From NCBI GenBank assembly GCA_017499595.2, contig CM038998.1, positions 4,154,001 through 4,218,000 of the forward strand: 64,000 bases of DNA. The letters run 5' to 3'. This document shows positions 27,488-50,123 of this stretch, in pieces (position 1 is the stretch's first letter; each line of letters opens with the position of its first letter). Below the pieces are notes generated by a model. That model ran no database searches. It saw only the letters and a list, made by a program, of their open reading frames with translations, and was not told the DNA's origin. Both the position numbers and the translations under genes were made by a program. This DNA is from Psilocybe cubensis (lineage: Eukaryota).

Positions 27488-28462
27488 ATGTCCAACTTTG
27501 ATGTGGATATCGGTGCAATGGACGAAGTGATATTCAGACTCCAAGGCATAGTTAGCGACAAGATGCTACCACCAATGGCAAAGCCTGCTTCGTACGTCCA
27601 CTCCATTGAGGTGAATTAATTACAAATGAGGACTGTTACAGCTGCGACAGAACGGTCAAGCAACAACCATATTTATGTACCGCCATTGCTATCACGGGAC
27701 TCGGAGACATTGTGTTCAATAAGGTGATGGAAAAGCTAGAAGAAGTTTTCCTCCGTTTTGCAAACAATTTTCCCGCGGACAGCGTCAGCGGCTATGACCC
27801 AGTTCTTCACAAAGACACGGGTTTCAATGTTTTCCATGCACATAGCCAATATTTCACGAAGGTATCCACATATCAAGACAAATCTGACAACATAGGTTTT
27901 CATCCCCTGGTCGACCCTGATAACGTGTTGGCGTCCATGGTAGGGGACAGTTTCATCCACGCAATCGATAACAAGGTACAGTTTCTTTGTCGGGAGATAC
28001 TTCCTGACGGAACAGCCAGGTATGTTTAGAAAATACCAACAACACATCACAACCAAACTAATATCATGTTGCAACAGATATTATTCTTATAATCCTGCCT
28101 CCATACAAATTGGAGACATTGTCGAGATCAGTGTTGCCTTTGTCGCATTTCCTGCCCAAGGAAACAAGTACAAATTTGTTGTCGCTCTTCGCGGAATACT
28201 TGTCTTGGACCAGGAGGCAAGAGAGGTAAGCAATGTTACATTGAACAGTCTCATAGCCATTCATAACTTCCAACAGAAAGCTCATATTCTCAGAATGCGG
28301 TTGCGCTATACTCCAGCAAAAAGACAGGTTGCTGTTTTGTGTAGGACAAAGAGGCAGCTGTACAAAGGTCAGATTGACATTGAAGACACGCAACAGAGGA
28401 TGGCACATATGCGCTTAAATGAGGACACAGTCCACAATAGCAATACTATGTCCCAAGATTAA
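27488..28462 (+). CDS. Cargo gene 2 of outer element X: uncharacterised protein, multi-exon
   Basis: Spliced MSNFDVDIGAMDEVIFRLQGIV...ITGLGDIVFNK...SQYFT...VDPDNVL...HAIDNKVQF...YNPASIQIGDIVEISVAF...LRGILVLD; GT-AG introns. Confidence 0.6.
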
Positions 28463-28607
28463 TACATATGTACATAGAAAGACAAGGATATCATAAATGT
28501 GCTGAAGGAACAATCAATCGATTTGCGTGAACATTGTAAATAACAAGGAATAATTTGTCAAGTCATTTTCATGACAGAAATTATCTGAAGGTGTTAGTTG
28601 GCACCCC

Positions 28608-28787
28608 ATGGGAGAATCCTGCGTACACTGTACGCAGAATATTCCCACACTTGGCTGAATATCGGCGAGGAAGTCCGTGGGAGAATTCTGCGTACACTGT
28701 ACGCAGAATATTCCCACACTTGGCTGAATATCGGGAGAGGTTGACCGTGGGAATATTCTGCGTACACTGTACGCAGGATATTCCCAC
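28608..28787. repeat. Three tandem 41-bp palindromes, period 69-70 bp
   Basis: GTGGGAATATTCTGCGTACA-C-TGTACGCAGAATATTCCCAC variants at 28608, 28677 and 28747. Confidence 0.92.
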
Positions 28788-28868
28788 GCTCATTCGCAAG
28801 TCAAACTTACAAATTAAGACAAAAAGAATGAGGACGAGAACACAAGTTTATTTCGAACAAAAATTTGA

Positions 28869-29844
28869 CTAAGGATGGAAGAAATTACAAATATCCATTC
28901 CACAAGAGGCTTTGTGGTTGAGGGCGATGCAACCAAAAAATATCTGCCTTTCTGGATAGCAAATACAAAACAGTTGCATGTACACGGTCATCTTTTTGCC
29001 TACATTACAGGAATTAAATTGACAAATACTAAAACTAAAGAGCACACACCTTATACCCCTTTCCCAGGATTTGATAGCTTTTTTGACACGCTTGTGTAAT
29101 TGGTAAACATCTGCCGCTGTGTAGTGAAAATCTAATGCGATACCGCTGATGTGACGGACACCAAAATGCAAACAATCAAATTCATTGAGCAACAATGCCC
29201 ACGAATTGGCTTCAACAAAGGAAGTCTGATTTGCTTTGGGTAAAAGAGGCAAAGAATAAACCCAACAATGCCTGTCGCCAACCCGTCTAATCCCAGGAGA
29301 GAACAACTCTGGATAAGGATCGTAATCCAGCACAACGAGAACATGACCACGAGATGAACTATACCCAACATTTACGTTGTCTCTGATAGACTGTATCCTG
29401 CTTTGGATATGGCGGTCCATTTTTAAAGTTTGCAATGGAATGGAAAGAACAAATTTCAAGCCACGGGAATGATATTTTGCAAGAAATTTTTGCGCGCGCT
29501 TGAGGTTGGCAGAAGGTTGCAACAAAGAGACTTGATGTCCAAAGGTAGCATTTGGATACAAGCTGTACACCTTCTCAAAGGTAACAAAATTCATGACGCC
29601 AGCTGCAGTAGAACAAAATTGAAGTTAACATTGTTTTGACACATGACATTGGGGACATACTGCTATGATACCCCAAAATGCACTCTACCACCAATTGACA
29701 AGTTGTAATCAGTTGGACAAAAGAACCTTGGCACCATAGGTTAACGACCACTCCAGTGGTATTGTAATATCGATGAAGAGGATGTTTATCTGTGCTCGAC
29801 ATACATGTCCATGTCACCCGGAATCCATATATTAGCACGATTGA
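28869..29844 (-). pseudogene. 3' part of cargo gene 1 in outer element X (5' part at 36533-36845); disrupted by element Y and by a ~120-bp deletion near 29788
   Basis: Reverse complement of 33579-34673; lacks inner-copy bases ~33637-33755. Confidence 0.75.
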
Positions 29845-31701
29845 TTACAAAACTTTATGTAAGTAAAGCAAGTTCTTTTATCCCCACAACCCACTGTACA
29901 AAAATATGTCCTTGCCAATTGTCCCCATCAGTAAATCATTGATGCCATTAAAATTGCGTGATTAATACCGGTTTTTTACTTAACCGGTATGCTTGACTTA
30001 ATAATCGGTTACTATCATAGAATTTCTGTTAGTTTTTGTTCCTACCAAGGGGATATGGAAATTAAAATACTAGATATTAGCTAGGTAGATAGGTTAGCTG
30101 CCATATGGTAGAAAACAAAATTAGATACCATTACATTATGACTTTTTAATTGCAAGTTAAACATTTTGACGCAGATAATCATTGCTCATAACCAAAAATT
30201 TTATAATAATGACCTCATTCAACTGATTTAAGGCCATTAATTAGTCACAATCAATTACATACCAACTGTTTTGCATGCTTTATACACCTCTAACGGCAAG
30301 TAGAGGTAAATAGAATGCTTTATTGTTATCAAAAAAAATTTAGCATGAATGACTAGCAGACTGTAATGGCATAGAATAAAGAATAATAAACATTATGTAT
30401 CTAGCTATTATCTTTAATGCCACTTCAAATAACTTGTCATATTAAACTTGTTGTGCTGTTCATACTGGCCATGAATTAATAAGCAGACTGTGGGAATAAC
30501 TTGCATATAGTGTATGCAAGTTATTCTCACGGTTGCCGCACTTTGCATTGAGCAACTTGAACTTCTCTGGTAATTCCTAATATATTACTGAGATGCATTG
30601 CATATACTTTAGGTAAAATACAAGTATTTTTGGCAATAATAATTATTGTCAGTCCTAGTTTAGATGATCTTATTATATTTTACTTGCTGTGGTGTTTGTA
30701 CTGGCCGTGAATTAATAAGCAGGTCGTGGGAATATCCTGCGCACACTGTACGCAGGATATTCCCACGGTCACTATACTCAATTTGCATTGAGCACTGGCC
30801 ACTTTGGTCAAGAGATGGTCATTTTGAATAATGTTTTCCATGCATTGAATGTATTTTGGGGAAGAAATAATGCACTAACACTTGCAAATTATGCTTGAAA
30901 TATGTTTCCACACAGCCAATTGTGTTCACAGCAACATCAAACTATACCAAAAAGAAATATGCGCACCAAACAAATGTTTTTGCACACAATATTGTTTCAC
31001 TCTTGATGCACTTTTCAAAAATAAGAAAATTACGAGTCTTTACGTAAGTAAAGATGAGTTCTTTTATCCCCACAACCCAGCGAGCAAAAATGTCCTAGCC
31101 AATTGTCCCCATCAAAATATTATTGATGCGATCAATGTCGTTACCGCTATCGGTATTTTCCTTAAGCGGTCACCGGACCCCCTAAGCAACCCCTTTCCAA
31201 TTCATTCTACGACTTCTTTTTACCATTGGTTACTTTAAAGGTTGTTTTTGATTTGTTTTGATCGCAATGTGAATGTGCGTTTCCATAAAATTAATTATAC
31301 CCAACAACAATAGTCCTACTCAATTCACTTTTTTGCGTTGTTGTTTAATTTTTAAAACCATGTGGAACCGTCTAGCCAACGTGCTTATATATTGTACTAA
31401 TACTTAGAGATGGAACCAAATGCACTCTTTGAACTATGGGTCTGAAAGGTTGGAAATAGAACTGTGCAGGCACACACGTTCCTTGATATCGGTAGCTTCA
31501 TCAATCAGAGTTCAAATAGAAATAATTACGCGTTCTTGGGTTCTGGGCGTTCTGTACTATTTGAATTTGATTTTCTGATTCATGATCGTTTCTCACGCAT
31601 ACTAATTTGTTCTTCCCCTACGTCGGGCATCTATCAGCTTACGGTTAATATATTTATTGACGTAGTATAGACAATGCACTTTTCTCCGCACTGTTTTACC
31701 C

Positions 31702-34673
31702 ATGGCTTCCGCGTTATCCCCCCGTTTCCAACAGTATGTTCACTGTTTTATCTCATTTGGTTATTACTTATTTTTTAGAGTCTTTCCGCCTCCTATGGAC
31801 GATGTGTACATGGATCAGATGGATCTGAAAACCCTCTACCGTTTCTCTTGGACTTGCAAGGAGCTAAACGACCGCGTTTCGGGCTATATGCGCCGCGCCT
31901 TCCGTCCCAAAAATTTATTTGCTCCTATCTTCAAACCCAATGAACATTTGCTGTTTTGTCTTCTCCAGTTCAAGACTGGCCTGGTTATTTCAGGTTCCAC
32001 CGTTTTGCATTTTACTTGTTTTAGTGGTCCAACGCAAAGCGTGGCATGACAAGACTTTACATCTCACAATTGTATAAAATATTTTTTAATCTAGATTTAT
32101 ATAACATAGTTAATATATATTAATATGTTCTGAATGCACAGCCAGATACTGGGCAAGGTTATAATTAATTACTATGACTTAGGTCTACTACAAGCTTAGT
32201 TGTGTCAGACACAAAAAATAGCTGTACAGGTTATAAGGCCTAATTGTAAGGAAGAACTTGTCTATTATAATTTTCATACCTGCTAAATATTGAAGAATTC
32301 CAGATCTGCTGGGAGAATTCTGTATGGAAAACTGATGGAAGAATGCTCATGTGTATGGCTGCCCAAGTGGGGACATATTTCCCATAAATATAATTTTCTT
32401 ATTTTTGAAAAGTGCATCAAGAGTGAAACAATATTGTGTGCAAAAACATTTGTTTGGTGCGCATATTTCTTTTTGGCATAGTTTGATGTTGCTGTGAACA
32501 CAATTGGCTGTGTGGAAACATATTTCAAGCATAATTTGCAAGTGTTAGTGCATTATTTCTTCCCCAAAATACATTCAATGCATGGAAAACATTATTCAAA
32601 ATGACCATCTCTTGACCAAAGTGGCCAGTGCTCAATGCAAATTGAGTGTAGTGACCGTGGGAATATCCTGCGTACAGTGTGCGCAGGATATTCCCACGAC
32701 CTGCTTATTAATTCACGGCCAGTACAAACACCACAGCAAGTAAAATATAATAAGATCATCTAAACTAGGACTGAAAATAATTATTATTGCCAAAAATACT
32801 TGTATTTTACCTAAAGTATATGCAATGCATCTCAGTAATATATCAGGAATTACCAGAGAAGTTCAAGTTGCTCAATGCAAAGTGCGGCAACCGTGAGAAT
32901 AACTTGCATACACTATATGCAAGTTATTCCCACAGTCTGCTTATTAATTCATGGCCAGTATGAACAGCACAACAAGTTTAATATGACAAGTTATTTGAAG
33001 TGGCATTAAAGATAATAGCTAGATACATAATGTTTATTATTCTTTATTCTATGCCACCACAGTCTGCTAGTCATTCATGCTAAATTTTTTTTGATAACAA
33101 TAAAGCATTCTATTTACCTCTACTTGACGTTAGAGGTGTATAAAGCATGCAAAACAGTTGGTATGTAATTGATTGTGACTAATTAATGGCCTTAAATCAG
33201 TTGAATGAGGTCATTATTATAAAATTTTTGGTTATGAGCGATGATTATCTGCATCAAAATGTTTAACTTGCAATTAAAAAGTCATAATGTAATGGTATCT
33301 AATTTTGTTTTCTACCATATGGCAGCTAACCTATCTACCTAGCTAATATCTAGTATTTTAATTTCCATATCCCCTTGGTAGGAACAAAAACTAACAGAAA
33401 TTCTATGATAGTAACCAATTATTAAGTCAAGCATACCGGTTAAGTAAAAAACCGGTATTAATCACACAATTTTGATGGCATCAATGATTTACTAATGGGG
33501 ACAATTGGCAAGGACATATTTTTGTACAGTGGGTTGTGGAGATAAAAGAACTCGCTTTACTTACATAAAGTTTCGTAATCAATCGTGCTAATATATGGAT
33601 TCCGGGTGACATGGACATGTATGTCGAGCACAGATATGCTCTTCCCGTTCTTTCCTGGATGATGTCCATTGGATTTACTATCATGCTGCATCCCAAATAT
33701 CCGGACAACACCACAGCGGAAAAAATTTTGAAAATGGAAAAAATCGTCCTTCAGAAACATCCTCTTCATCGACATTACAATACCACTGGAGTGGTCGTTA
33801 ACCTATGGTGCCAAGGTTCTTTTGTCCAACTGATTACGACTTGTCAATCGGTGGTAGAGTGCATTTTGGGGTATCATAGCAGTATGTCCCCAATGTCATG
33901 TGTCAAAACAATGTTAACTTCAATTTTGTTCTACTGCAGCCGGCGTCATGAATTTTGTTACCTTTGAGAAGGTGTACAGCTTGTATCCAAATGCTACCTT
34001 TGGACATCAAGTCTCTCTGTTGCAACCTTCTGCCGACCTCAAGCGCGCGCAAAAATTTCTTGCAAAATATCATTCCCATGGCTTGAAATTTGTTCTTTCC
34101 ATTCCATCGCAAACTTTGAAAATGGACCGCCATATCCAAAGCAGGATACAGTCTATCAGGGACAACGTAAATGTTGGGTATAGTTCATCTCGTGGTCATG
34201 TTCTCATTGTGCTGGATTACGATCCTTATCCAGAGTTGTTCTCTCCTGGGATTAGACGGGTTGGCGACAGGCATTGTTGGGTTTATTCTTTGCCTCTTTT
34301 ACCCAAAGCAAATCAGACTTCCTTTGTTGAAGCCAATTCGTGGGCATTGTTGCTCAATGAATTTGATTGTTTGCATTTTGGTGTCCGTCGCATCAGCGGT
34401 ATCGCATTAGATTTTCACTACACAGCGGCAGATGTTTACCAATTACACAAGCGTGTCAAAAAAGCTATCAAATCCTGGGAAAGGGGTATAAGGTGTGTGC
34501 TCTTTAGTTTTAGTATTTGTCAATTTAATTCCTGTAATGTAGGCAAAAAGATGACCGTGTACATGCAACTGTTTTGTATTTGCTATCCAGAAAGGCAGAT
34601 ATTTTTTGGTTGCATCGCCCTCAACCACAAAGCCTCTTGTGGAATGGATATTTGTAATTTCTTCCATCCTTAG
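31702..34673 (+). pseudogene. Cargo gene 1 of inner X: F-box-like N-terminus plus GS...DxD motif, interrupted by element Y'; 3' end approximate
   Basis: Removing 32015-33578 restores the frame TGLVISGSTVLHF-INRANIWIPGDMDMYVEH...VQLITTCQSVVECILGYHS-(intron)-AGVMNFVTFEKVYSLYP. Confidence 0.75.
32015..33578 (-). mobile_element. Small non-coding related element Y' (~1.56 kb) inserted in cargo gene 1 of inner X
   Basis: Same terminal motifs as X, diverged: 5' TTACGAAACTTTATGTAAGTAAAGCGAGTTCTTTTATC; 3' ...CATGCCACGCTTTGCGTTGGACCACTAAAACAAG. AT-rich, no credible ORF. Confidence 0.8.
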
Positions 34674-44159: not shown

Positions 44160-45308
44160 GTATGCTTGCTACTAATTTTATGTTGGAATTGCGCAGCGAA
44201 AAGCCTTTTCCATCAGATGACAGGCATCGTTGGGCCCCACACACTGTGCTTCGCTTGAGACTTTTCCGTCATGATGGTCGTTTCTATGCACCATGTATGC
44301 ACAATGCAATGCCTCCGGACAGTCCTGCGTAGACAATCGGTAGTATAACAACGTTTGGAACTCGGTGTGTGTGCTCCTAAGCGCCAACTACAAATCTCAC
44401 CTGTACTGGCACAACGAGTTCAATTCCCAGGTGGACTGTATGGTATACAGCAGCGTTTGCCATTTTCCCAAGAGTTACCTGAGAGGAACCTTCGATGCCT
44501 ATGAATACATGGCTCCATCGTGGGTTGCACTGCGGTCAAAAGGAAAGAAAGGAGTAGAACTGTGGAGGTAAATATCACAATTTTTTGAAAAAAAAATTGC
44601 AACGATCTCCAACATACCTGTTAGACTAACTGGGTTCCGATCCATCGACGCTTTCCGTCCACTCGGCTTTCTCGCTATTACAGTTTAGTCTGGGTGATCT
44701 CGCCCTGCCGAGATCAGCGCTGAGGTCCCGGGTACACCATCACCCATATGCCACGTTTGTGAGGAGTTCTTCGCTCATGGTCCCTCATGACCTCACACAG
44801 CGGCGGTGAGCTGATAATATATTAATATGAATGTCATCTCGCAGAAATGACCATGCAGCAGATGGGAATACCGGGCTATCAGCATTTGATGATGTGAAAA
44901 AGCGCTGATTTAGAAGTGGAGCTTTCTTCATCGTTTTAACTAAATGCACCCATACCTTAAACCCAGGCTGTGGTAGCACTAGCGTTCCGTTATGGCTCCT
45001 AAACAATCGTGCCGCGTAGAGAAATGCAGCGACCCTACGCATCGGAATACAGAGCTGATAAGAGGAAATCGCCACGCTGTTCGCAGATTGTCGCTATCTA
45101 CGCAACACCAGTTCAATGTTAAGATGCTTAATTGAAGAATCTGATGGGAAAATGAAAAAATGAATGACATCTATGGGCAATTATGAGTAATAAACGAAAT
45201 AGGTACAGAAGCAGGTGATTTGTTTCAAGGACAAAGCGGCTTGATCACCAACGACGACGACCGTCTCACCTTTGCTCGACCACTCTCTTCCAGTGCATTT
45301 CGGAGTTG
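43323..45308 (+). repeat. Segmental direct duplication, copy 2 (pairs with 22870-24967)
   Basis: Homology ends at CCAGTGCATTTC.GAGTTGG, about 100 bp upstream of the G-alpha start codon. Confidence 0.93.
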
Positions 45309-45411
45309 GCGGAGGTATTATTACTTGCTCCTGTCATCACGGACATCCTTAGTATCTTCGATCCCAGCAAGCTTCAATTTTGAACAGTCGTCTTTGAAGT
45401 GTCTAATCGCC

Positions 45412-47188
45412 ATGGGCGCATGTATGTCGGCACCCGCAGGGGTCGAGATATCGGAGCAAGACAGGATTTTGCATAGGGAAGCAGAGAAACAGCTCAAAGA
45501 AGTGCGTACTATCTGTAAACTCTCATGCCACAAGCTTCAGCTAATCACTGTCATCGGCATAGGCGAAGGCCAAGTTGTCAGCCCAGGTCAAGGTTCGTCC
45601 GGGTCTGTACTTGCTCGATGCATTGACTTAGATGTGGTGCAGGTTCTTCTTCTTGGCTCAGGAGATTCAGGGAAGTCTACTATCCTCAAGGTCTGTTCTT
45701 GCCTATCATAACTTGGCGAGGTCTCACCCGGGCGCACGTATTCCCAGCAAATGCGCCTGATACACAAGGTCCCATTTTCGGCTCAAGAAATTGAACATTA
45801 TCGACAGCTGGTATTTGACAACCTCACCCGAGGACTGCGATACCTTCTGGACGCCATGGAGGACATGGAGCTCACCGTTTCAGACGAGAACCTTCCGCAC
45901 TTGGAGCTGATTGATGGTGTCAGAGATATCCGTGATGGAGAACCTTTCCCTGTTGCCTACTATGTGCCGCTCAAATCCCTATGGTCGGACCCTAACGTGC
46001 AAAAGGCATGGGCCAGAGGAAACGAGGCTGCTCTGCCGGAGAAGCAAGTCGCCCGTCCTTCATTCATCCATTATTCTAATACATTTCTTAGTCTTTCCTA
46101 CTTTTATGCAGACCTCGAGCGATTGTTCGACCCAGCCTATCAACCTACCGAGCAGGATATCATTCGTTGTAGGGCGCGGACTATCGGCATTACAGAAACT
46201 ACCTTTACGCTACGGGAGCACGAGATGCTCATGGTCGACGTTGGAGGGCAGAAAAGCGAGCGACGAAAATGGATACACTGTTTCCAAGACGTGACGAGTA
46301 TATTGTTCCTGGTAAGCTTAAGCGGGTACGATCAATGTCTGGTGGAGGACAAGGATGCAGTATGTCTTCTGATCGTCACGCATCACGGAGTAATGGCGCT
46401 GATTGTATCGGCTACAGAACCAGATGCAAGATGCCATGACTATCTGGGATTCAATTTGCCACTCACAGTGGTTCAAGCAAACATCAATCGTAAGCTTTGT
46501 ATGCATGTCATTGATTGATTGCTCATGTATTTCAGATTCTATTTCTCAACAAAAACGATCTTTTCGAGAAAAAAATACCCACATCTGATATAAAGAACTT
46601 TTTCCCGGTATATACCAGTTCTTCTATCTGTCGAATGCAATCTAATGCTCATGATGTGATTGTGATTCTATTAGGATTTCGAAGGCGAGCCAGGTGACGT
46701 CCGCGCCGGGCGGGAGTATTTTAAACGTCGATTCGCAAGACTGGCTCAGAAAGCGGGTAGATCAAAAGAGAGAGAAATATACATCCAGTCAGTCTTTCTT
46801 TAACTCTTTTGCGTATAATATCTAATGTACAACTATTTTGCATCTTCACTTCGCCTTTTGGGCAATAGTATAACGACGGCAACTGATACGGCGCTGCTCC
46901 GAGTAGTGATGGCCGCGGTCGAAGGTACTTTTTATTTTTATTTATTCGCATAAGAATGATATATCTGACTTATGTGTTCCACAGAGTGAGTTTTCATTTC
47001 TATGTTATTTTTTTCCATTCTACTTGGTTGCACACCGTTGCTTTTTTCTCTTGTGTTGTCGGAATTTCGGGGATGCGTCTCCGAAATTTCCAAGTGTCCA
47101 ACTGTACGCTCATCATGTATCCCTTTTCTTTTTGCACTTGCACAGCATCACTCTCCGATCAAGTCTCGAAAGTGCAGCATTGATTTAA
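45412..47188 (+). CDS. Heterotrimeric G-protein alpha subunit, multi-exon, including a GC-AG intron and a predicted 1-nt exon
   Basis: MGAC N-terminus (myristoylation/palmitoylation type), LLLGSGDSGKST, RARTIGI, DVGGQKSERRKWIHCF, LFLNKND, TTATDT; last exon 47146-47188 gives DITLRSSLESAALI*. Confidence 0.95.
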
Positions 47189-50123
47189 TCATTTTTCTTC
47201 CTTTTTATTTCAGCATCATTTATTTATTTTACAACTATCTTTCCACCATATATGTCAATCGCCCGACTTTAGATTTTCATATTGTCATAATGTTTTTTCC
47301 TTCTGGTTGTGTATGGGATGCGCACACTGTTTTTGTTCTTCTCATGTCTGCTTGCCTTTTCTTTGGTCACTTTTCTAACTGGAACTCCTTTTTCCATTTC
47401 TATTGCTCTCAAAACACCTACTTCACCTACTGCCTACTGCCCAATCCAATCGCATGCACACAAATTCTCATTCTGCTTCGTGAATGATATCCGCAAAAAT
47501 CCAATAATTATGTCCGCGATATGCAACACGTTTTGCAGCGGGATCGTGAGCAAAAATGTACGTCTTAACTCCTTTTTGCCGCCGATTTTGTTTCCGCCCC
47601 CGTTCTAGAATCCCGGGTTTTCTGTTTCCCCTCTCCGACCTCGATCCTCCTTACAAGCATCCCATCAGCCATATCTGCCTCCGCCAATGTGCTATCGCTG
47701 ATGTTTCTTTTTCCTTTTTTGAACAGATACGGTCCATTATGCTTTGAATGAAGATCCTGCCATGCAATCCTGATTTCTATGTTCATGCCTTTGGTGCGTA
47801 GTGCCCCTATAGGTCACTCATGCGCTCCCCATAGCAATTATTGACTGACCATACCGTTAGTTTGTCTCAAAGCCCCTTTCGGGCATCACACCTTACGCAG
47901 ACTCACATTCATTTATTGCTAATATACTGCCAGAACTCCTAATGTGAGGAATGGAAGTGACAGAAGCTATTCCTAATCTCAGTCATTAACCATGCATACC
48001 ATCTCCCACCTTTACTTACATCTTGTCGCTTCAATGCCAATGCCAACGCCAACGCCAACGCCATTGTCAGAGTAACCTGAGGCCGGACTCACACCTGAGC
48101 CGGGGTTCATCTCCGGGTCTCGTCATCGACTGCGGGTTCACCAAGACATTTTCAGTTCATCTCTTCAGCAATCAAACTCTGCCCTGTCTTGCTCGTGTGC
48201 TACAATACCCGGTTCATATACCCTCTTTCTCTGTAGGCTTATCCTCGATTCGTGGACACGAACTTTTAATAATCCTCTCAAGCGTCCAGCTCTACACTAA
48301 GAATTACAGGGATGACCGAAACCGTTTGCTGGAGTGAGCTGGAGTGGTGGCCCATTTACTTTGTACCTTAACCGGCGTGGATTGGCACGATAGGCTTGGG
48401 GATGGATGGGTTGAAGTGGGTTGCAACCGGTTTCAGTGTGGTTGGATTGGTTCTTTTTAAGCTCTTTTTCTCGTCAACACACTCCATTCTTTGGTCAACA
48501 ATCCTCAGGTCGAACCTATTCACTCGGCCAGTTGCAGGATTCCCCAAGGATGGATCGTCGCCTTAGATTCGCTAACCTGGTGTCCTCTGGTTCTCCGGGG
48601 TCATGTCATCAACCCCGTCGACGAGCCCAATCACGAGATTTTACAGATGTTGGTGGATTGATTGTACTTTCAAGATTTCCGGAGACCAAGCCTTAGTTCA
48701 TCTTGGAAACCGTTGATACACGATTGCGACTTCCTGTTGGGAATGAAAGGATAATAAACGCCTTGTCTCTCTTTGGACCTGGTGACGAGTCGTTCAGCGT
48801 TGTCGACCCGGACAATGCCGTTGGATCAGTCTTCATTGGATTGAGTCGTTTGCGACTTAAGCGTTATTCGTTTGTGCGTGTCCTCAAGTTGGTGTCTGGG
48901 ACCTCATTTGCTGCTGCTTCTTTCTTTTATTACCCAGTCTTCTTCTCTCATCTGACCTGATGTATGTAATGGTTCGTGTTCTTCGCAATCCCTCTTGGTT
49001 CTTCCCTTTGCCACTCATACCCCACTGCCTTGCTTAATTTATACACCATTCATCCCCGGCTACTTTTCTTTATTTTCCATGCATGTTGACATAGAATAGG
49101 GTCCGTCGGGCACATTCAATTACTATTTCTTCAAATTTCGCCCAAGTTAACCTATTGACTACAATTCCCCGTTTCTCAATATTGAACATGTGTGTTATCA
49201 TGTAGCCTATCCCACCCCTGTTTTCGAAGCGTCTACTTCCCTCTCAAGGATATAATCTCTTCTTGCCTCGAACAATCATACCACGGGTCGCCCAAACTTC
49301 TATCTGTCTGATGGAACTGGTTGATTGGCCGTTTTCGCTGGCTGCATGGCTATTTTTCGGTGATGATACTTGTCGAGATTCCGAAAGAATCTGACAATCA
49401 CACATCCTTCTGTTGGTCACTAACCTGTGTAGACAGGGTAGAGATACCCAAAATTGTACTAAATCGAGCTCGACACGATCTACTCTCCGGTCCTGGATTC
49501 TGGAGCTCCATCGTTTTGGATCACTCTCCAAGCTAGTGAATACGGTTGAGGTTCGGAAGATAAAAATGGCTGGTTTTCTAGGGGTTTCTTGAAATTCGAA
49601 AAATAGATTGTTCAATGAAATGTGCTATTTTAATTGTTAGTATGAATTGGGGGGGTTATCATTCAATAACAGTGTCCACAACGATGGAAAGTTGTAAGGC
49701 AGCGGGTATACGCATTGTCTACAAATCTAGATGCCTCCTCATAATTGGTAGAAAGTTGATAAGTTTCAGTATCGTCTTTTATTGTGCCAATGCTGCATTG
49801 TGGAGATTTCGCTTTCAACCGACTTCCCACAATCTGGCTCATCCCTGGCGGTATGCTATGGTTCCAGCGCTTATCTGTAATGGCACCACCTCCAAGGATC
49901 ACACAATGATATAAGCACATCGTGGTTTGGTGGTAAAATGTGTCTTGATCGAGCATGCACAAATAGTAGGCCGAAATGCCGAATGTGGGACCAGGCGCTT
50001 TTCAAGCTTCCAGTTTTTTTTGACGTTACTTCGTCCTTGACGTTTCCAAAAACTGATATCCAGTGCGAAAAGTCTCAACCTGACTCTTAACATTCTCCAA
50101 AGTCGTTAACTATTTCTCAAGTC

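Follow-up and report, generated by a model that had tools for sequence, protein, structure and literature searches.

The DNA analysed here, hereafter the window, is a stretch of 64,000 nucleotides (nt) of the Psilocybe cubensis contig CM038998.1 (positions 4,154,001 to 4,218,000, forward strand, of GenBank assembly GCA_017499595.2), and our subject is a gene within it for the alpha subunit of a heterotrimeric G protein (G-alpha) whose last coding part almost certainly includes an exon of a single nucleotide, the A at position 46985. P. cubensis is placed among the Agaricales mushrooms by a taxonomy look-up. Profile and motifs agree on the identity of the gene. The exon at 45748-46041 is 100% identical, over a query of 98 amino acids (aa), to the NCBI P. 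cubensis protein P0001 (P numbers refer to our list of homologues), a 376-aa protein whose entry is named 'guanine nucleotide-binding protein alpha-2 subunit'. The Pfam G-alpha family PF00503 matched the window exon at 46093-46359 (E value 3.5e-39), P0001 (E value 1.4e-110, 370 bits vs a cut-off of 48.8) and the isoform pair P0186 and P0004 (E value about 1e-116), and the solved structures nearest to the gene product are human G(o) and G(q) alpha (E value about 1e-84). Read in the joined frame, the translation carries an N-terminal lipidation motif (a MGAC.. start), the P-loop GSGDSGKST and the further nucleotide-binding motifs DVGGQ, NKND and TTATDT. The gene has 10 shared exons followed by one tail exon (type 1) or two (type 2), and joining these in silico gave open frames of 362 aa and 361 aa, respectively, which are the lengths of the proteins from relatives' transcripts.

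The features of the region are collected in Table 1. Exon 9 ends with GTCGAAG at 46924, and at 46980-46991 the sequence CACAG-A-GTGAGT places one base directly between a canonical AG acceptor and a GT donor. These are the positions given by the initial annotation of this DNA, which had been made from the letters alone and had predicted a one-base exon between an exon end at 46924 and an exon start at 47146; its coordinates for both introns (46925-46984 and 46986-47145) were exact. The base A is required for the conserved end of helix alpha5 to be read in frame, and the CTGAC within the first intron is branch-like. There are three AG-N-G[TC] sites between 46925 and 47538, and an A with a consensus donor occurs only at 46985, so the earlier statement that no other GT/AG pair restores the frame also stands. 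Two other ways of parsing the junction were discarded: the AG at 46985-46986, if used as the acceptor, would put the sequence into an unrelated frame, and the donor GTACTT does not fit the consensus of a U12-type intron. By itself, however, the motif is weak evidence for a one-base exon because AGAGT is frequent in the window, with 110 occurrences on both strands (0.86 per kilobase (kb) per strand) and a chance expectation of about 0.2 in the 221-nt interval. The RNA-type evidence is decisive.

Table 1. Features of the P. cubensis G-alpha gene, in window coordinates. X1 and X2 are public runs with spliced contigs.
Feature	Position	Strand	Basis
G-alpha coding span, ATG to distal-tail stop	45412..47747	+	Joints from spliced contigs
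Exon 9: ITTATDTALLRVVMAAVE and first base (G) of the Asp codon	46869..46924	+	Spliced contigs, joined frame
Intron 1, 60 nt, GTACTT...CTGAC...CACAG	46925..46984	+	Sequence, joined frame
One-nucleotide exon: A, middle base of the Asp codon G-A-C	46985..46985	+	Spliced contigs, orthologues
Intron 2 to proximal acceptor, 160 nt, GTGAGT...CACAG	46986..47145	+	Sequence, contigs, joined frame
Type-1 tail exon, coding part: C, ITLRSSLESAALI, TAA	47146..47188	+	Joint with A in X1 and X2
Intron 2 to distal acceptor, 553 nt, same GTGAGT donor, ending TTTTGCAG	46986..47538	+	X1 joint
Type-2 tail, first part: 19-nt micro-exon, C and GIVSKN	47539..47557	+	X1 joint, joined frame, orthologues
Type-2 internal intron (predicted), 169 nt, GTACGT...GAACAG	47558..47726	+	Sequence and conservation
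Type-2 tail, second part: IRSIML and TGA	47727..47747	+	Joined frame; relatives' ends, e.g. ..SKNIRSIML
GC-AG intron, donor GCAAGT	46044..46091	+	Joint 46043 to 46092 marked 'GC..AG' in X1 and X2

Six public sequencing runs (X1 to X6) contain the stretch, and X1-X4 were aligned over 45300-47600. X1 and X2 come from one study, are of a kind guessed to be RNA and contain about half of the sampled words, as would be expected of exons alone, while X4 to X6 contain 85-89% of them, as fits DNA. The contigs of both X1 and X2 lack all introns of the gene (nine others besides the joint in question, including the GC..AG intron at 46044-46091), and therefore derive from spliced RNA. In both runs, 46924 is joined to 47146 ('skips 221, GT..AG'), and a single letter, an A, stands between the two sides, at contig depth figures of 272.6 (X1) and 490.6 (X2); this is the first of the two strings that the initial annotation had offered as a check on its prediction. 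No joint lacking the A was found among the X1 and X2 contigs at either of the acceptors described below.

An aligner reports that one A lies between the sides and not where that A came from, and so one might suppose that a single non-canonical intron, RNA editing or an insertion supplied it. We regard such a source as very improbable. A single excision cannot yield the mRNA, since a G follows 46924 and a G precedes 47146, and a two-nucleotide exon, GA, produced by a one-base shift would need introns with GG..CA ends. Moreover, 46985 is the only A between an AG and a GT donor in the interval, and its flanks are invariant in all 88 orthologous loci examined for them.

Single-base indels are common assembly errors, and the initial annotation had itself raised the possibility that GAC is contiguous with one exon in the real genome, a base having been lost from the sequence at 46924 or 47146. 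The X4 run holds a single 10.8-kb DNA contig from the same coded organism that is colinear with the window across the whole stretch. It differs by 5 substitutions and listed insertions, all of them intronic, and represents a different strain, and its colinearity at both junctions excludes an indel error there. The same split codon occurs in 88/88 orthologous loci from many metagenomes, and the same base is missing from frameshifted public models of other orders. Thus, an assembly or sequencing error is already contradicted, and we assign it a negligible probability. X4 contains the unspliced form only and shows no joint; thus, the joined form is not found in its DNA.

The orthologous loci were obtained by scanning metagenome contigs for a degenerate pattern encoding L-R-V-V-M-A-A-V-E followed by G and GT, with nothing specified past the first donor. 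The scan returned 89 loci, every one of which encodes xT[TN]ATD..LRVVMAAVE before the donor and shares the 3' end of exon 9. Of these, 88 extend 100 nt or more past the donor, and AG-A-GT lies 48-89 nt past the donor in all 88; they comprise 71 distinct strings, which collapse into 65 groups when up to 5% mismatch is allowed. This result answers the call in the initial annotation for a check of orthologues. The acceptor of intron 1 is YAG in all 88 (CAG in 44, TAG in 44), and a YTRAY motif occurs within the last 45 nt of intron 1 in 81 of them. The second donor is GTGAGT in 79 loci, GTAAGT in 6 and another hexamer in 3; at the first donor, 23 hexamers occur. The second donor carries 1.51, 1.66 and 2.0 bits of information at positions +3, +4 and +6, vs 0.22, 0.53 and 0.42 bits for the first.

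The A at 46985 therefore has canonical splice sites on both flanks, is the sole retained base, is explained, as judged from the X4 contig, neither by an indel nor by a DNA copy of the joined form, is needed for the reading frame and is conserved, which are the properties by which we would recognize a single-nucleotide exon. That the exon is real is, in our judgment, close to certain.

The initial annotation had ended the gene at the type-1 stop (47186-47188) and overlooked a further pair of terminal exons, at 47539-47557 and 47727-47747. In X1, one contig joins 46924 to 47539 ('skips 614, GT..AG'), and here too the A lies between the sides; the depth is 214.1 and the shorter side is 24 nt long. 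A pyrimidine tract and AACAG precede 47727, the predicted start of the second exon of the set. The two proteins differ solely in the last 12-13 residues of alpha5, the type-1 protein having the 13-residue tail ITLRSSLESAALI and the type-2 protein a 12-residue tail made up of GIVSKN and IRSIML. When compared with human G(o) alpha, neither tail needs a gap to align with the end of alpha5, and the Asp whose codon the A completes is matched to that of the human ..AVTDIII..; the initial annotation had already fitted the first of the two tails to the G-alpha alpha5 pattern. A type-2 tail produced by read-through, in which the intron at 47558 is kept, was considered and dropped once IRSIML was seen at 47727.

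A second X1 record is contiguous over 47146-47562, with 1 other letter and 6 loose letters at its end. The predicted exon starts with ATACG and the intron with GTACG, so a joint of 47557 to 47727 would account for such an ending; the record is compatible with that joint and is not proof of it. The same record shows that type-1 transcripts extend through the first type-2 exon. Since type-1 mRNA reaches past 47557, the type-2 exons sit in the type-1 3' untranslated region, and removal of the 47558-47726 intron from type-1 mRNA would fall about 370 nt past the type-1 stop, a position that might make this mRNA a target of nonsense-mediated decay. Contig depths (257 over the body, and 272.6 and 214.1 at the two joints) are non-additive, and the isoforms are not ranked by them.

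Both tails recur among the orthologous loci. Of the 80 loci with 400 nt or more of downstream sequence, 76 contain a type-1 tail exon (AG, C or T, 13 codons, stop); of the 59 with 1400 nt or more, 50 contain the first type-2 exon (AG, C or T, 6 codons ending in N, GT) and 47 the second part (..IR..ML, stop). Type 1 lies upstream of type 2 in all 66 sequences that have both, namely 65 loci and the window. Divergence is concentrated at third codon positions, at 0.65 vs 0.33 and 0.26 at the other positions for type 1 and 0.56 vs 0.26 and 0.09 for type 2, and both tails are therefore under protein-level constraint. Three related loci, L004, L010 and L019, have no type-1 tail despite about 2-3 kb of downstream DNA and may represent a lineage that lost the proximal tail; a type-2-like ..IISRN exon is seen in L004 and L019, of which the pattern scan scored L019 only.

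It might be asked whether type 1 and type 2 come from separate paralogues rather than from alternative splicing of one gene. There are several G-alpha genes in Agaricomycetes, and Armillaria has two paralogues of the present gene. Yet the window and 65 metagenomic loci each have both sets of tail exons after a single exon 9, and X1 links the same A to both acceptors. Three pairs of proteins (P0111/P0179, P0170/P0173 and P0186/P0004) have bodies with 0 mismatches over 343-349 aa and tails that differ after the Asp, and both tail types are present in 9 of the 10 clusters formed at 90% identity. The single-locus arrangement already contradicts the paralogue explanation, which we consider most unlikely; the occurrence of both exon sets in one locus, together with identical bodies and different ends, is what alternative terminal exons would give. 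We hold a conserved two-tail arrangement to be highly probable for the family, and the same arrangement, on the strength of the one contig, to be likely in P. cubensis itself.

The public protein record at this junction divides by the source of the sequence. The 120 listed homologues comprise 66 genome models from NCBI/nr and 54 proteins found in JGI, Logan or ENA only. The complete ones among the latter lie mostly on contigs of 1.2-2.4 kb with uninterrupted frames, and look like transcripts for that reason. Among the transcript-like proteins that reach ..MAAVE, the next residue is Asp in 37/37, of which 19 have a 13-residue ..LR..L...ALI tail and 18 a 12-residue ..SKNIR..ML tail. Cluster members add a further 30 transcript-like proteins, all with the Asp, which brings the total to 67/67 (32 of type 1 and 35 of type 2). 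The 57 genome models that reach ..MAAVE never have Asp as the next residue: 27 end with E and a stop, 3 end with G and a stop, 3 have G in place of Asp before a type-2 tail and 24 end otherwise. None of 60 further genome-derived models (31 and 29) has the Asp and a proper tail; P0221 has the Asp, followed by unrelated residues. Genome-derived public models with both the Asp and a correct tail thus number 0/117.

The forms taken by these errors are informative. Ends in E and a stop arise when a gene-prediction program takes out intron 1, after which G and AG, and then TGA, are read from AG-A-GTGA; they are an indirect footprint of the AG-A-GT structure in those genomes. Tails of genome models that begin with A.. 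or V.. correspond to the frame in which the A is skipped, and a one-base shift turns the out-of-frame tail of the Daedalea quercina model into the type-1 tail known from a related transcript. Twelve models have G or GH in place of Asp before a correct tail (P0011, P0020, P0091, P0106, P0126, P0129, P0130, P0136, P0205, P0212, P0228 and P0230), as would result if a non-canonical splice were forced one base inside the acceptor; their single wrong residue is at a conserved position of alpha5. For Coprinopsis cinerea, the two NCBI models examined (P0053 and P0057) have this junction wrong as well. The GenBank entry for a G-alpha protein of Flammulina filiformis (P0021), a species for which four G-alpha genes have been studied (PMC9030616), is truncated and ends in ..AAVEE. 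The clusters of P0071 and P0106 represent two paralogues in Armillaria, both mis-modelled at the same junction, and therefore the one-base exon predates that duplication.

The P. cubensis model itself, P0001, is wrong in two places: the GC-AG intron is read through, which adds 16 aa, and the A is skipped, which gives a frameshifted tail. That tail is exactly the one that the initial annotation had derived for skipping, in keeping with its remark that gene finders miss such a base. The GC donor is lineage-specific as judged by comparison with orthologues, since the donor at that position is GT in 67/67 metagenomic orthologues in which the junction was found (the sequence of the other 22 of the 89 loci did not include it).

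Metagenomic loci carry no taxonomy; the named species with homologues belong to the Agaricales, Polyporales, Russulales, Thelephorales and Boletales. The taxonomy of five of these species was looked up. The whole arrangement is conserved across Agaricomycetes.

The initial annotation had further proposed that inclusion or skipping of the A acts as a switch, a receptor-competent protein alternating with a frameshifted, uncoupled one. Direct pairing of the 46925 donor with the 47146 acceptor is sterically simple and would give a frameshifted tail, and contigs cannot show minor or low-level forms. The evidence nonetheless runs the other way: all contigs that span a joint include the A, the Asp is present in every one of the transcript-like homologues, and the out-of-frame tails of genome models vary in sequence and length between species; no conserved product of skipping was found. 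Inclusion of the A looks constitutive, and regulated skipping seems to us improbable.

How might an exon without length be spliced? Two ordinary U2-type introns abut the A, intron 1 ending in CAG and intron 2 starting with GTGAGT, and their removal combines the G at 46924, the A and the first base of the next exon into the conserved Asp codon of helix alpha5. The intron 1 acceptor and the intron 2 donor probably overlap in the space that the spliceosome occupies and would not be engaged simultaneously. Since the two sites are one base apart, the introns are presumably removed sequentially, and either order would work because each intron has all of its own signals. Removal of intron 1 does not alter the three bases that precede the second donor, which are A-G-A both before and after it. 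The near-invariant GTGAGT, which is perfectly complementary to U1 and is the only such donor among the introns of this gene, probably compensates for the missing exon context, and its near-invariance fits selection for a donor that can be recognized without exon bases.

From the second donor, use of the proximal acceptor at 47146 leads to the type-1 protein, and use of the distal acceptor at 47539, with removal of one further, predicted small intron, to the type-2 protein. The last residues of alpha5 select the receptor in animal G-alpha proteins, and for this reason, and in view of the purifying selection on both tails, the two isoforms might be expected, by analogy, to couple to different receptors. 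The choice between the 47146 exon and the 47539/47727 exons is a more likely regulated step than skipping of the A. The mammalian G(o) alpha gene likewise has alternative C-terminal exons (Go1 and Go2), with reported coupling to different receptors. In both cases, one G-alpha gene yields isoforms that differ in the receptor-contacting C-terminal region; in Go1 and Go2, about a third of the protein is swapped, whereas here the swap concerns the last 12-13 residues, in a fungus, with a one-base exon at the switch point.

If intron 1 is removed and intron 2 is kept, the frame runs through G and AG into the TGA of GTGAGT, giving a tail-less product that ends in ..AAVEE. An immediate in-frame stop from the second donor is present in 85/88 orthologous loci. 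It is conceivable, although we think it doubtful, that the one-base exon is a conserved hub at which, in the course of mushroom development, regulated acceptor choice swaps receptor sets and retention of intron 2 gives an uncoupled third product. If so, a three-way signalling switch would turn on one base and would have been hidden by the annotation breaks occurring there.

Our overall interpretation is that the A at 46985 is a constitutively spliced one-nucleotide exon followed by two acceptors and two conserved tails throughout Agaricomycetes, and several points weigh against it. The RNA nature of X1 and X2 was guessed by a tool, and both runs are from one study; they are contigs and not reads, and so provide no abundances, rare forms or splicing intermediates. 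The type-2 joint in P. cubensis is a single X1 contig with a shorter side of 24 nt, and X2 lacks this joint; neither run covers 47563-47600, and we count neither the lack of the joint nor that of coverage as evidence. The 47558-47726 intron extends outside the stretch of the contig alignment, which ended at 47600, and is predicted. Among the orthologous loci, no type-1 tail was found in 4/80 (L004, L010, L019 and L069) and no first type-2 exon in 9/59, which may reflect loss in particular lineages or tails that the scan patterns missed. The search also required GARG followed by GT, so that only genes bearing intron 1 could be found, and the figure of 88/88 for AG-A-GT is conditional on that. 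Taking these points into account, we still consider the interpretation very probable.

Little else was noted in the vicinity. A search of Rfam with 46500-48200 gave no match, and open reading frames at 46800-47800 on either strand were listed mechanically, with no other feature found. Beyond the 3' end of the gene, at about 48036-48062, GCCAAC-like hexamers are repeated in a short run, and elsewhere in the window the G+C content falls to 0.35-0.41 at 28001-34000 vs 0.43-0.55 in most of the remainder.

A one-base exon is the smallest possible, and the present one gives splicing research a natural model, open to comparison between species, of how an exon without length is processed by the spliceosome, a value that rests on the invariant A, the YAG acceptor and the near-invariant GTGAGT donor in 88 loci. 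It also exposes a systematic annotation error, in that the C-terminus of a conserved signalling gene is correct in none of the 117 public genome-derived models. Because these models are wrong, work on mushroom G proteins has used proteins whose receptor-contact ends are absent or incorrect. Finally, the arrangement raises the hypothesis that a single fungal G-alpha gene could produce two isoforms that differ in their receptor-selecting tails, by which means few G-alpha genes could serve many receptors.

Exons of one nucleotide have already been published for Arabidopsis, Fusarium and Coprinopsis, and our literature searches returned no paper on this exon in a G-alpha gene or on alternative alpha5 tails in fungal G-alpha proteins; the part of PMC10282164 that was consulted contains no mention of G-alpha. 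A constitutive single-nucleotide exon was described in APC11 of Arabidopsis thaliana by Guo and Liu in 2015 (PMC4674806), and resembles the present one in having two canonical flanking introns, in being essential for the frame and in having been mis-annotated in databases. That case differs in concerning a plant and another protein and in an abstract that mentions no alternative downstream exons; here, conservation spans a class of fungi in 88 loci. The one-nucleotide exon (AG-G-GT) of the Fusarium CYP621A P450 genes, reported by Nelson and Syed in 2026 (PMC12940212) and presented there as the second such case on record and the first from a fungal gene, is closer in several respects: it is fungal, completes the codon of a conserved motif, was deduced from a phase mismatch, was confirmed with SRA reads and is conserved in orthologues. 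In CYP621A, however, the host is an ascomycete, the base is a G and the exon is described from one genus (24 genes), whereas the present exon is an A in a basidiomycete, is found across a class and leads to a choice between two sets of terminal exons. A long-read re-annotation of C. cinerea lists 13 one-nucleotide exons in 13 genes, which are unnamed in the main text (PMC12230235). These are of the same kind as ours and come from the same fungal class, and an orthologue of the present gene may be among the 13.

Two other types of splicing also share features with this junction. At the recursive splice sites, or ratchet points, of Drosophila and vertebrates ('zero-nucleotide exons'; PMC8605326, PMC6224609), an acceptor abuts a strong donor and removal is stepwise, as would be the case here. 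A ratchet point keeps nothing, whereas here one coding base is kept and the introns are short (60 and 160 nt); as one base separates AG and GT and is retained in the RNA, this classification was rejected. Stwintrons, the spliceosomal twin introns of fungi (PMC5587772, PMC8469720), likewise involve two U2 introns at one site and their consecutive excision. A stwintron has a splice signal of its outer intron split by the inner one, whereas here both introns are complete, with an exon base between them; the unspliced sequence contains the full signals GTACTT..CTGAC..CAG and GTGAGT..CAG, and this classification was rejected as well. The present exon thus adds a well-supported case to the single-nucleotide exons already described, and it is set apart by the depth of its conservation, by its breaking every public model examined and by its position at the branch point between two tails.

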